Virus record (IMG/VR): IMGVR_UViG_2778261501_000002 | Location: 1 to 22,667 of that record | Reading direction: 5' to 3' (one strand) | DNA: 22,667 nt | Source: a virus | Taxonomy: Duplodnaviria > Heunggongvirae > Uroviricota > Caudoviricetes | Shown: positions 1,513-4,406 of the stretch, in pieces | How the letters are laid out: every line of letters begins with the position of its first letter | Position numbering within the stretch: position 1 is the first letter of the stretch | Position numbers and translations under genes: made by a program | The notes under the pieces: generated by a model | Databases searched by the model: none | Told to the model about the DNA's origin: nothing | What the model saw: only the letters and a program-made list of their open reading frames with translations

Positions 1513-2651
1513 TATGCAGACTCCTCTGAATACTGAAGACGGAACTGGTTAACCACGGCAAAAACACGCAACTGGTTAACATAGTCAGGCGGGAACAGCG
1601 TGTTCAGGCGGTTCGGATCGCTGGCATCACGCTCAACAACCAGGTACTGCTTAAACAGTTCGTAGTTTTCCACGATCCCCGCACACTCAAGCTGACGGTA
1701 GGTTGCCAGCAGTTCCCCTTTGATTACCGCCGGGGTGACAATCGCCTGACCGGGACCAAAGCGGGTACCGTCGCTGGCAAGCTTGTGACGCCCGTACTTA
1801 CTGGTAATGACGGATTTCAGTTTGCGCAGTACATACGCACTGGTATGCAGCGTCTCGCTGTCGAGGTAGCTGTTATCCGCAACCCCGTAAGCATTTTTCC
1901 TGTACGTGGTGACATCACGCTGAATGCGCACCAGCGTGTTAACGGAGGCCGTGTCGTTGAACGGCAGACCGATATAATCAAACGGCTCATCCGCCATTGC
2001 AGCCACCGCGCCGGTGAGAACCGGAGCGCCCGTTCCGGCGGTCCCCGTCGCCACGGCAATCTGTACGCCCGCTGGCAGCACTTCACCCCCACCGAAGCCG
2101 TAGTAATTGAGGCTGACAGGAATTTCATTCCCGCAAAGCCCCTTATGACGCGCGGTCAGCGTGACAACACCAGCCGAAGATGAAGCTGTAAACGGCAGAG
2201 TCGGAACGGCATTGATGGCATCCTGGATACTGCTGGCAATCGTCGTGACGTTATCGCCGTTGGTCACCGGAGCCTGCACACGGGTACGTCCCACATAGAC
2301 ATTCACCGTGCCGCTTTCGGTTGCTTCCCCGGTCACCGTCAGCGTAACCGTTGCCGCCGCGCCTGTGGCTTCCGGAACGGCAATCACATACAGCTCGCCA
2401 AACGGGTCAGTCTGGCGATAAGCCTCGACCATACGCGCCAGCTGACTTCCCGCACCACAAATCTGGCGTGCATAGTCTGCCGACGGCATCAGCACCAGGC
2501 TGTTGGCAACAATCTCTGCACCGTTATTGGCATGACCAATCAGCAGCGATGCTCCGCTGTCCTGTGCAGTATTCGCCGCCGAGTTATCCATTTCCGCATA
2601 AAACAGCGGAACCAGCGTATTCGACGGAATGGTGTTAAAGCTTATCGTCAT
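1512..2651 (-). CDS. Phage contractile tail sheath protein (Mu-like)
   Basis: 379-aa ORF, ATG at 2649-2651, translationally coupled to the tube-like ORF; assigned by size, order and sequence character from memory. Confidence 0.55.
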   Translation of the reverse strand: MTISFNTIPSNTLVPLFYAEMDNSAANTAQDSGASLLIGHANNGAEIVANSLVLMPSADYARQICGAGSQLARMVEAYRQTDPFGELYVIAVPEATGAAATVTLTVTGEATESGTVNVYVGRTRVQAPVTNGDNVTTIASSIQDAINAVPTLPFTASSSAGVVTLTARHKGLCGNEIPVSLNYYGFGGGEVLPAGVQIAVATGTAGTGAPVLTGAVAAMADEPFDYIGLPFNDTASVNTLVRIQRDVTTYRKNAYGVADNSYLDSETLHTSAYVLRKLKSVITSKYGRHKLASDGTRFGPGQAIVTPAVIKGELLATYRQLECAGIVENYELFKQYLVVERDASDPNRLNTLFPPDYVNQLRVFAVVNQFRLQYSEESA

Positions 2652-2805
2652 CGGTGTTCACCTTTTTATTCACGCGCCGGATATCACCCGCGGCTTCACG
2701 GCGCAGCCAGTAGTTGTTCTCGTCAACATTTCGCCCTTCGGCGGGCAAAAGGTCGCCGCGGGCAGGGTCAGGCACTGACCGCCCTTTAACAGGTTTCACA
2801 AACAT
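2635..2805 (-). CDS. Hypothetical small basic protein (56 aa), possible tail-module remnant
   Basis: ATG at 2803-2805 shortly after the terminase stop; 3' end overlaps the sheath start; no convincing SD. Not in the supplied track (under 60 aa). Confidence 0.2.
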   Translation of the reverse strand: MFVKPVKGRSVPDPARGDLLPAEGRNVDENNYWLRREAAGDIRRVNKKVNTDDDKL

Positions 2806-2813
2806 GATGATTC

Positions 2814-3944
2814 TCAGGAAGGAAGGGTTATTTCGGTGTGATGTTCGATATCGCCGTCAGGCCCGTTACCGGGATCGAGATAATCAACATCAATCGCCAG
2901 CGTTCGCAGTTCATCTAGACTGTTCAGGTCATCCTGCTGGCGGGTATCGTCTTCAGTCAGCTCGCTGATGACCGAAAAATCGAACTGATAAATCAGCTCA
3001 TGACGATTCAGATCCAGCAGCGTACCGCCGTCATAGGTAATCGGGTTACCGCACGCTTCCGGGTTAGCTTTTTCCAGCACCTGTGGGTCGGTCCAGTCGT
3101 CACCTTCGTCAACGGTATAGATGATCCCGAACAGTTCATCGTTGGGTACCGACCCGTTGAGCATCTCGATAACTTCCCGCCGCTTGTCGTAGCACGGCCC
3201 CTCAATGTTGTACCCGGCAGTAGTAATGGCCCACATCAGTGGCTGACGTCGCGCCCCCATCCCGGTAAGCATCGTGGTGTAAAGCGCGTCGGTGGCGTGC
3301 TCGTGATATTCATCCACCACCGCACAGTGGGGTGATGATCCATCACCGGGGTTACCGATCAGCGGTTCAAACCGCGCGCCATCCTCCGGACGGTTCATGT
3401 TTGAGGCGTTAACCTCAATCCCGAACGCTTCCGTCAGCATGGGTGTGCGTTTACACATCAGTCGCGCCGGGCGAAAGACTTCCCACGCCTGTTTCTCTGT
3501 CGTGGCACCGGAATACACTTCCGCGCCAAACTCGTTATCACAGGCAAAACAATACAGGGCGACACCGGCAGAGATTGCCGATTTGCCGTTCTTACGGGGA
3601 ATTTCGGTATACACCTCCCGGAAGCGGCGCAGCCGGATACCTTTATTGACCCAGCCAAACGCACAGCAGATCACAAAGAGCTGCCACGGCTCCAGCGTGA
3701 TGGGCATCCTCTTGAATGCCCACTCCCCCTTGGTGTGCGGCAACAGTTGAATAAATTTGGCGGCCCGTTCAGCCAGGTCCTTGTCGAAGCGGTAACGAAA
3801 CGACTTACTTTTTTCCGCCATCAGGTCATCAAGATGGCGCTGGCAGGCCTGAATCACAAACTGGCAGGCCACAATCTTTCCGCGCACGACATCACGGGCA
3901 TACTGATTGGCAGCATTTACGTTGGGGTAAGATTTCCGGCTCAT
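2814..3944 (-). CDS. Phage terminase large subunit, N-terminal ATPase domain only (likely truncated remnant)
   Basis: 376-aa ORF with Walker A-like PRKNGKSA and Walker B-like VVDEYHE; no nuclease domain, acidic C-terminal tail, and it directly abuts tail genes, so a deletion fusion is likely. Confidence 0.7.
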
Positions 3945-4406
3945 GACTCGATGATTTTCAGAAACGGGTTAGTGGCTTTCTTCTGCCCCGCCAGGCCAAT
4001 CAGACGCTGGCGGCTGCTGGGGTCGAGTCCGAGCATTGCCCCCGTGCTGCTCATCTCGGACTCCTGTTCTTTTTTGGCGGTCAGCTCCGGATTTTTGACC
4101 CTGCCGCCCATTGCACCGGTGATGGTGTTGCCCTGTATCAGGAAGAGACACAAAGACGCCATTTGCAGACTGCGCCACAGCGTCAGCAATGAAGTGAGTT
4201 CCACCTGCACGTTGCAAAATCATTGCCCATCCCAGCGGGAAAATCTGATCGCCATCGGCACGAAGGCGGTTAAATAATGCGTTCTCTGTTACATCCAGCC
4301 AGTCAGCAGCTTCAGCGTACCCCCCCGGCAACGCTGCGATAGTTTTTCTGACAGCTTTCACGTACCACTCAGGCTGTTTTTCTACTTTCCAGTGATGCTT
4401 ACCCAC
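3941..4406 (-). pseudogene. Frame-disrupted gene: cII-like regulator N-terminal part joined out of frame to a 3' segment coupled to the terminase
   Basis: 145-aa ORF (3969-4406) starts overlapping the cro-like stop. A second frame (3941-4210) ends in an ATGA overlap with the terminase start. The frame break lies between about 4130 and 4210. Confidence 0.45.

Follow-up and report, generated by a model that had tools for sequence, protein, structure and literature searches.

Defective, or 'grounded', prophages carry large deletions and truncated or fused ORFs, and retain an integrase and a repressor. The temperate phages SfI, SfV and e14 are close relatives (PMC3636060). The cryptic prophage e14 of E. 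coli K-12, which belongs to the same family as the element described here, carries ymfL, a P27-type terminase, ymfR, Mu-like tail genes, ymfQ and the Pin invertase. It also has a scar like one of those reported below, ymfN (oweE'+'aaaE, 'chimeric replication protein/phage terminase YmfN'), in which the 5' part of an early gene is fused to a terminase gene, as well as a portal fragment (beeE) and a baseplate-J fragment (jayE). SfV, SfII and SfI and the prophages integrated intact at thrW in 19SZHZ886Rt and in O157:H7 FRIK944 have complete or near-complete genomes of ~37–40 kb.

The 22,667-nt stretch of DNA that we analysed (the window) is what remains, in an E. coli chromosome, of a temperate phage of SfV/e14-like type integrated at tRNA-Thr (thrW). 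It combines HK97/P27-type head and packaging genes with a Mu-like contractile tail, and its attachment core (9545–9563) corresponds to the last 19 nt of tRNA-Thr. Gene order, integrase type and attachment core are those of the SfV-family phages and intact thrW prophages, and every retained block is 96–100% identical at the nucleotide level to SfV, SfII, SfI and the 19SZHZ886Rt and FRIK944 prophages, but the remnant lacks ~26.6 kb that these relatives possess. Unlike e14, which is integrated at icd, retains intact ymfL and ymfM and has no sheath or tube genes, the remnant retains DUF2635, a shortened sheath and the tube and has lost the ymfL C-terminus and the baseplate and fibre genes; the breakpoints of the two elements also differ. 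From defective prophages in general, the remnant is distinguished only by having four junctions mapped to the base. It is a case of ordinary prophage decay, with nothing different in kind from known defective prophages.

The window is colinear with the FRIK944 thrW prophage in five blocks of 96–99.5% identity, and its structural and terminase blocks match the intact 19SZHZ886Rt prophage at 100%, 100% and 99.9%. Relative to these near-identical intact prophages we see four simple deletions, here numbered S1 to S4 (Table 1). In three-way alignments each junction passes directly from one parental sequence into the other, and the 2–6 bp of microhomology at the break (AT, CGGGTT, CA or TAC) are common to both parents. 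The window has no counterpart of the replication, Q, lysis, HNH/cos, portal, protease, capsid, tape-measure or baseplate genes of the FRIK944 and 19SZHZ886Rt prophages. We are highly confident in the account as a whole, namely that this is a non-functional SfV/e14-like residue at thrW whose scars come from microhomology-mediated deletions.

Table 1. Features of the thrW remnant and its deletion scars (positions in the window)
Feature	Position	Strand	Description
Scar S4	1053–1055	.	TAC microhomology; ~9.6-kb deletion
Tail-sheath gene with scar S1	1512–2651	-	357-bp (119-codon) internal in-frame deletion, from alignments to SfV and the 19SZHZ886Rt prophage
Scar S1	1929–1930		CA microhomology
DUF2635 gene, intact	2635–2805	-	Mu gp38-like, 56 aa; Pfam DUF2635, E=1e-16
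Chimeric ORF, 376 aa	2814–3944	-	TerL 5' part and tail-terminator 3' part, in frame
Tail-terminator 3' fragment (SfV orf9 homologue)	2814–3065	-	Codons 104–186 and stop; DNA matches SfV 7097–7348 and FRIK944 prophage 2267–2518
Scar S2	3060–3065	.	CGGGTT (6 bp) microhomology; TerL residue 293 joined in frame to tail-terminator residue 104
Large-terminase (TerL) 5' fragment	3066–3944	-	Residues 1–293 of 577; 99.3% identity to TerL residues 1–295
P27-family small-terminase (TerS) 3' fragment	3941–4136	-	Codons 101–164 and stop; 98.5% identity to TerS 101–164
Scar S3	4137–4138	.	AT (2 bp) microhomology; ~10,750-bp deletion measured against FRIK944
ymfL 5' fragment (CII/CP76-family regulator)	4137–4406	-	Codons 1–90 of 183; 100% amino acid identity to YmfL 1–90
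cro-like HTH gene, intact	4399–4659	-	86 aa; Pfam HTH_3, E=5e-10; last undamaged early gene before the first scar
Integrase, SfV-type tyrosine	8367–9530		387 aa; within a block 99.5% identical to FRIK944

The 376-aa ORF resembles a truncated terminase but is an in-frame TerL::tail-terminator chimera. It contains a complete TerL_ATPase domain (Pfam PF03354, residues 86–256, E=9e-26), and a Pfam search of the ORF returns no match to the nuclease domain (PF20441) expected of a functional TerL. The intact TerL homologue has 577 aa, with TerL_nuclease at residues 268–560. The C-terminal 83 residues (294–376) of the ORF are those of the tail terminator and not of a terminase, the full tail-terminator gene matching Pfam Phage_tail_terminator. 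One flank of the scar (window 1929–3065, 1137 nt) corresponds to positions 20508–21644 of the 19SZHZ886Rt prophage (L011) at 100% identity, and the other (3060–4138, 1079 nt) to 27546–28624 at 99.9%. The deletion amounts to 5,907 bp relative to 19SZHZ886Rt and 5,659 bp relative to FRIK944, and with it went the TerL nuclease domain and the portal, protease, capsid and connector genes.

These results bear out much of a first-pass annotation made from the sequence without database searches, which had noted ATPase motifs and no nuclease domain, had taken portal, head and other genes to be lost beside the terminase, and had proposed alignment to intact prophages. That alignment maps both the S2 and the S3 deletion to the base. 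The description of the ORF as a truncated terminase needs amendment: the nuclease domain has indeed gone, and the 376-aa protein is well short of the intact length, but the break lies within the ORF and the last 83 codons come from another gene. The further statement that the terminase directly adjoins the sheath gene was mistaken, because the DUF2635 gene, whose protein is identical to WP_000497751.1 of intact prophages, separates the two.

Upstream of the chimera lies a gene read in two frames, the product of a deletion that fused ymfL out of frame with the 3' end of the TerS gene. The arrangement is as the first-pass annotation had described it: the first frame starts at a GTG (4406) in an 8-nt overlap with the cro-like gene and stops at 3969, and the second (3941–4210) ends in an ATGA overlap with the TerL ATG at 3944, a native overlap that has been retained. 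At the scar, ymfL codon 90 is joined to the last base of TerS codon 100, giving a +1 frame shift, and past the junction the ymfL frame reads 55 residues of TerS DNA out of frame. The cII-like 5' part and small-terminase 3' end that had been postulated are therefore identified as YmfL and TerS segments. Domain searches of both halves, also suggested at that stage, give Terminase_4 in the 3' half, at profile positions 46–93 of 98 only; with TerS codons 1–100 deleted, the fragment has neither the complete domain nor the start codon of its own that a functional small terminase requires. The 5' ORF, in which only YmfL residues 1–90 are left, has no Pfam match and lacks a complete Phage_CP76 domain, a domain that full-length YmfL carries at residues 17–150 of 183 (PF06892, E=1.5e-13).

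By blastn, window 3061–4136 corresponds to positions 8173–9248 of the FRIK944 prophage (L009) and window 4137–5700 to positions 19999–21540; the replication, Q, lysis and HNH/cos genes were lost between them. Because 19SZHZ886Rt, the best structural match, has a different cI/cro module, the size of the S3 deletion and the parental sequence on the ymfL side were taken from FRIK944 and 2014EL-1346-6, whose intact prophages encode a protein (WP_001191674.1) identical to the cro-like protein of the window. The immunity region of 19SZHZ886Rt is of the other (e14/SfV ymfK–ymfT) type, and we rejected this prophage as the exact progenitor, which was not found among the sampled genomes. Salmonella phage 118970_sal3 and mEp460 were set aside as parental references; they locate the junctions but, at 91–97% identity, are too divergent to define the microhomology. 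An apparent 'TA' insertion at S3 that arose from divergent references vanished with closer ones.

At least two additional scars, S1 and S4, lie just beyond the interval of the first-pass annotation. S1 takes out most of the subtilisin-like sheath domain, and the Pfam Phage_sheath_1 match, at residues 206–368 of the intact 498-aa protein, is nearly absent from the 379-aa sheath protein of the window. S4 joins a minus-strand tail-assembly gene fragment to a plus-strand N-terminal fragment of a tail-fibre-assembly (tfa) gene, with loss of the tape-measure, baseplate and fibre genes; window 12–1055 corresponds to 19SZHZ886Rt prophage positions 8643–9686 and window 1053–1930 to 19275–20152.

RefSeq/PGAP had already called partial pseudogenes for the four pieces, with matching boundaries, labelling the ymfL fragment 'ymfL, missing C-terminus', the TerS fragment 'missing N-terminus' and the tail-terminator fragment 'hypothetical protein, missing N-terminus', and it annotates partial genes at S4 as well. 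We likewise take the scarred ORFs to be pseudogenes, the loss of domains suggesting that the chimera too is non-functional. To judge from gene content, the remnant would no longer be capable of replication, host lysis, DNA packaging or the building of heads and tails. Both int/xis and the cI/cro immunity region survive intact, and because of the latter the remnant may still confer immunity to homoimmune phages.

Among 5,426 complete E. coli genomes, the same 8, AR_0119 and MS6192 included, carry all the junctions, which are identical in sequence, whereas more than 2,500 genomes have separate intact ymfL and TerS genes. In the assembly collection, 234 indexed blocks contain the sheath-deletion protein, and all 8 of the contigs retrieved through it carry the four junctions. 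Neither the junction-spanning queries nor the contigs encoding this protein yielded intermediates with only some of the deletions. Neighbouring DNA is still being lost, as window 5783–7766 is missing from most members of the lineage.

In intact prophages cro, ymfL, TerS, TerL, the tail terminator, DUF2635 and the sheath gene follow one another in a single order and orientation, and since the remnant has the same order and orientation, simple deletions suffice to account for it. The microhomology at the junctions is what suggests a mechanism, RecA-independent, microhomology-mediated deletion, by which replication slippage or illegitimate recombination at repeats of 2–6 bp would have removed ~26.6 kb in what were probably at least four separate events. 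At S3, ymfL codon 90 is fused out of frame with TerS codon 100/101, which gives the two-frame gene; at S2, TerL is fused in frame with the tail terminator, which gives the 376-aa chimera.

A single-base indel would likewise yield a two-frame ORF, so that the frame break near 4137 and the short terminase could be put down to faulty sequencing or assembly of a prophage that is otherwise intact; the first-pass annotation, working from the sequence by itself, had no means of dismissing this. However, the frames come from two unrelated genes, which intact relatives carry 10.7 kb apart; the 41-mers spanning the junction do not vary among 8 complete genomes assembled independently and 8 further contigs; and errors leave no space for the missing 26 kb. 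We see a vanishingly small chance that errors are responsible, and the preference of the first-pass annotation for a deletion was well placed. It had also allowed for a conserved programmed frameshift, and two overlapping frames of the same orientation between cro and the terminase might indeed suggest a single gene (3941–4406) expressed by programmed ribosomal frameshifting. Yet a CII/CP76-family regulator supplies the N-terminal sequence upstream and a P27-family TerS the C-terminal sequence downstream, the frame switch falls exactly on the deletion breakpoint, and the arrangement is confined to one clonal lineage in which all copies are the same, which makes frameshifting next to impossible. 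Lambdoid phages are notoriously mosaic, and the structural genes of the window are nearest to 19SZHZ886Rt while its immunity region is nearest to the FRIK944, 2014EL-1346-6 and mEp460 types, as might be expected had two resident prophages or remnants recombined rather than one prophage undergone internal deletions. We nevertheless hold such a join to be extremely unlikely: both module types are present in one colinear FRIK944 prophage at the same thrW site, the gene order and orientation of one prophage are kept at every junction, and the junctions have only 2–6 bp in common, with no segment of homologous exchange.

A different question is whether the products of deletion have been put to use. 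The element might have been domesticated, with the TerL-ATPase::tail-terminator chimera, and perhaps the shortened sheath, produced from the cro (PR) operon to counter superinfection by SfV-like phages, for instance as subunits with a dominant-negative effect on packaging or tail assembly. Consistent with this, two intragenic joins out of three preserve the reading frame, the retained fragments share a single orientation downstream of cro and no strong terminator-like site is predicted to separate them, the native ATGA overlap of TerS stop and TerL start has been kept, and the remnant is fixed in a much-sampled lineage, to go by the many blocks that hold the sheath-deletion protein. Against it, the copies are all 100% identical and therefore carry no selection signal, and at least two of three in-frame joins are expected in ~26% of random outcomes. 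Translational coupling is disturbed as well, because the ymfL frame terminates 25 nt short of the TerL ATG and no start codon leads into the TerS frame. The lineage is still losing DNA adjacent to the scars, and no promoter evidence was found: a promoter/terminator consensus scan of 1000–5000 gave counts at or below shuffled expectation. Domestication is thus very unlikely in our estimation. The proposal that the chimera, transcribed from the cro operon after SOS de-repression, would be a decoy that poisons packaging or tail completion of superinfecting SfV/e14-family phages, its in-frame state and that of the shortened sheath having been selected and not accidental, strikes us as similarly far-fetched. 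A chimera that proved to be both expressed and protective would make a minor example of prophage-fragment domestication; nothing here points there.

Decay by deletion, the reading we favour, bears mainly on annotation. The 376-aa ORF should not be called a terminase, nor 3941–4406 a frameshifted gene; both are deletion-fusion pseudogenes. The junctions, known to the base, are clean markers of one E. coli lineage, and the remnant illustrates once more how a prophage at the thrW hotspot decays through microhomology-mediated deletion, with e14 of K-12 as its counterpart. The phenomenon is already known, and its importance beyond annotation hygiene is slight. CB209 and ST540, considered as intact or intermediate states, were rejected as such; they have decayed independently and have other breakpoints. 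Their differing head-gene deletions are independent cases within the same phage family.

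Phage records matching the remnant fall into three groups, each covering one block: SfII, SfV and SfI match 1049-3065, the small and large terminase (TerS/TerL) pair of a Salmonella phage matches 3067-4138, and mEp460-type phages match 4138-4800. Two chromosomal prophages, both at thrW, are better references. The one in O157:H7 FRIK944 is near-complete, and its cI, cro and DUF2635 proteins are identical to those of the remnant. The other, in strain 19SZHZ886Rt, is apparently intact and shares 100% identity over 1053-1930 and 1929-3065 and 99.9% over 3060-4138. The immunity module of 19SZHZ886Rt (L020 380-1940, a further stretch of that genome) is of the e14/SfV ymfK/ymfT type, unlike window 4137-5449. 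Such a differing module beside 100% identical structural genes is mosaicism typical of lambdoid phages, and no sampled genome is therefore the exact progenitor.

Aligned to FRIK944 with blastn, the window resolves into five colinear blocks (see table). Three-way alignments show at every junction a clean change from one parental sequence to the other, with a short shared stretch at the break. Alignment to intact prophages, as the first-pass annotation had proposed, places the junctions on both FRIK944 and 19SZHZ886Rt. S3 (4137-4138, shared AT) removes ∼10,750 bp relative to FRIK944; S2 (3060-3065, shared CGGGTT) removes 5,907 bp by comparison with 19SZHZ886Rt, or 5,659 bp by comparison with FRIK944; S1 (1929-1930, shared CA) removes 357 bp inside the sheath gene; and S4 (1053-1055, shared TAC) removes ∼9.6 kb between the tail-assembly and tail-fibre-assembly genes. 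Microhomology at the four junctions thus spans 2-6 bp, with no longer repeat at any of them. Short microhomology of this kind is characteristic of replication slippage or of illegitimate recombination independent of RecA, and the scars may have arisen by either route.

Features of the window. Genes of the remnant (window 1-9600) are listed right to left; AR_0119 pseudogene boundaries were converted to window coordinates.
Feature	Window	Strand	FRIK944 prophage (L009)	Source or remark
cro-like HTH gene	4399-4659	minus		
Two-frame gene, first frame	GTG 4406 to stop 3969	minus		starts 8 nt inside cro
Two-frame gene, second frame	3941-4210	minus		ends in ATGA overlap with next ATG
376-aa ORF	2814-3944	minus		
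56-aa DUF2635 gene	2635-2805	minus		
379-aa tail-sheath gene	1512-2651	minus		
Tail-tube gene	1156-1512	minus		
cI-like S24 repressor gene	4757-5449			divergent from minus-strand genes
Integrase gene	8367-9530			
Colinear block	1053-1928		149-1024	blastn
Colinear block	1929-3065		1382-2518	blastn
Colinear block	3061-4136		8173-9248	blastn
Colinear block	4137-5700		19999-21540	blastn
Colinear block	6471-9563		22064-25157	blastn
Hypothetical protein, missing N-terminus	2814-3065			PGAP, AR_0119
Terminase large subunit, missing C-terminus	3060-3944			PGAP, AR_0119
P27 family terminase small subunit, missing N-terminus	3941-4138			PGAP, AR_0119
ymfL, missing C-terminus	4137-4406			PGAP, AR_0119
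Integrase	9703-10926			second element
Tape-measure-like 616-aa protein	11574-13424			second element
Capsid-E-like 343-aa protein	13728-14759			second element
HTH and replication-initiator-like proteins	16833-18028			second element
Short integrase-like ORF	19979-20611			second element

The junctions explain the unusual reading frames. At S3, the gene for the CII/CP76-family regulator YmfL retains exactly 270 nt, or 90 codons with 100% amino-acid identity to YmfL 1-90, and 299 nt are gone from the TerS gene, whose remaining sequence starts with base 3 of codon 100; this puts the join out of frame by +1. Past S3, the ymfL frame runs through 55 nonsense codons to its stop at 3969, and the genuine codons 101-164 of TerS belong to the second frame, which retains the native ATGA overlap with TerL. 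The out-of-frame join accounts fully for the two-frame gene, as the first-pass annotation had proposed in fusing a cII-like 5' part to the TerS 3' end. Profile searches of both halves of 3941-4406 matched 3941-4210 to no more than the C-terminal half of Terminase_4 (positions 46-93 of the 98 in the profile) and gave no Pfam match for the truncated ymfL ORF. Full-length YmfL matches PF06892 'Phage regulatory protein CII (CP76)' (E=1.5e-13) and its homologue is named CII in some phage records, so 'cII-like' is acceptable in the family sense.

S2 is in frame and joins TerL residues 1-293 to tail-terminator codons 104-186 (293 + 83 = 376 residues); the '376-aa terminase' is a TerL/tail-terminator chimera. 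In this ORF the Pfam search detects TerL_ATPase in full (residues 86-256) but no nuclease domain, and together with the ORF calls it confirms the features first described here, including the two frames and the ATGA overlap. The protein is not a full-length terminase, as intact TerL has 577 aa with TerL_nuclease at residues 268-560. The deletion and nuclease loss read from the sequence alone are thus real; the break was misplaced and lies inside the ORF, at 3060-3065. S1, also in frame, removes 119 codons and most of the Phage_sheath_1 (subtilisin-like) domain, leaving a sheath of 379 aa versus 498 aa when intact. S4 joins a 34-codon tail-assembly fragment (minus) to the first ∼21 codons of the tail-fibre-assembly gene (plus, start 993) within 1049-1141. 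A gp53-like fibre-tip ORF (624-971) and a Pin-type invertase gene (1-552) lie beside it.

The SfV gene order is cI, cro, orf36 (the YmfL homologue), replication genes, Q, lysis genes and HNH, then TerS, TerL, portal, protease, capsid, orf6 to orf9, DUF2635, sheath and tube, and an integrated SfV-type prophage keeps one orientation from cro onwards. Going by the genes annotated in the intact prophages, the S3 deletion took out the C-terminal part of YmfL, DUF4222, an HTH protein gene in the replication-gene position, PerC, Dam, a LexA-family regulator, RusA, KilA-N, DUF968, the antiterminator, holin, endolysin, Rz, iss, HNH and the N-terminal part of TerS. Also presumably lost is the cos region, which in SfV sits between HNH and TerS. 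Missing through S2 are the nuclease domain of TerL, residues 1-103 of the tail terminator, and the ymfR, portal, prohead protease, major capsid, connector and head-closure genes, in agreement with the head-gene loss first suspected. The genes deleted at S4 are those for the tape measure, DNA circularisation, baseplate and fibres. Judged by gene content, the remnant would be incapable of replication, cell lysis, DNA packaging or particle assembly.

Window 2400-4800 is present at 100% identity in eight complete E. coli chromosomes (AR_0118, AR_0119, AR_0128, Ecol_224, ARL09/232, MS6192, MS6193 and CH468) and was found in full in no other of 5,426 complete genomes. Junction-spanning 300-bp queries limit S2, S3 and the uninterrupted S1 form to the same eight; hundreds to thousands of others carry the intact genes separately. 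An exact copy of the chimeric protein is recorded on 68 contigs versus 154 for the shortened sheath, probably because pseudogene calls hide the chimera in many annotations. All four junction 41-mers occur in 8/8 distinct contigs fetched via the shortened sheath protein, and neither these contigs nor the junction queries of complete genomes yielded an intermediate with a subset of the deletions.

A sequencing or assembly error could produce a frame break and a short terminase, but is excluded because many assemblies made independently share identical junctions and because the two halves derive from unrelated genes, which upholds the original preference for deletion. The same observations exclude programmed frameshifting as the origin of the two-frame gene, an arrangement that is moreover limited to one clonal lineage rather than conserved. 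A mosaic join between two prophages is unnecessary, since both module types are colinear in the single FRIK944 prophage and no exchange segment is present at the junctions. That the in-frame chimera has been domesticated is a remote possibility that nothing here supports: its copies do not differ at all, a result of two in-frame joins among three is unremarkable (about 26% by chance), and a promoter scan was uninformative.

The scars are a real feature and represent deletional prophage decay, a well-known category; they are also already annotated as such, RefSeq/PGAP calling four partial pseudogenes here in AR_0119. Apart from the exact terminase break, the original interpretation is correct. 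The closest described case is e14 of K-12, from the same phage family, whose annotation includes ymfN, a 'chimeric replication protein/phage terminase' made up of oweE and aaaE, together with portal (beeE) and baseplate (jayE) fragments. The relationship of SfI, SfV and e14 and the thrW integration site have been described (PMC3636060). Independent head-gene deletions with different breakpoints occur in this family in E. coli strains ST540 and CB209. In ST540 (NZ_CP007391.1, L010 9002-10697), the first ∼499 TerL residues abut a tail-terminator fragment, and in CB209 (L002 9213-11123) full TerL and a 53-aa ORF directly precede the sheath gene. Head-module loss looks recurrent in the SfV/e14-like family.

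Decay appears to be still going on within the carrier lineage. The 1,984-bp segment at 5783-7766, which holds a 144-aa ORF and the start of a yfdR-like region, is present in the window and in two of the fetched contigs (L014 and L018), but AR_0119 and most other carriers lack it, apparently through an additional deletion that is polymorphic inside the lineage. Window 5701-6470 has no counterpart in the FRIK944 prophage. ORF 5967-6401 (minus, 144 aa) has no Pfam match but matches phrog_5286, of unknown function, over its full length (E=1.5e-90), and may be a moron or accessory gene adjoining the repressor. No intact tRNA gene was found anywhere in the window; 9545-9563 equals the 19 nt that end tRNA-Thr (thrW), with another thrW-like piece near 9599. 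In tandem with the remnant, within 9545-22667, comes a second integrative element; compact and capsid-encoding, it is possibly a satellite or another remnant.
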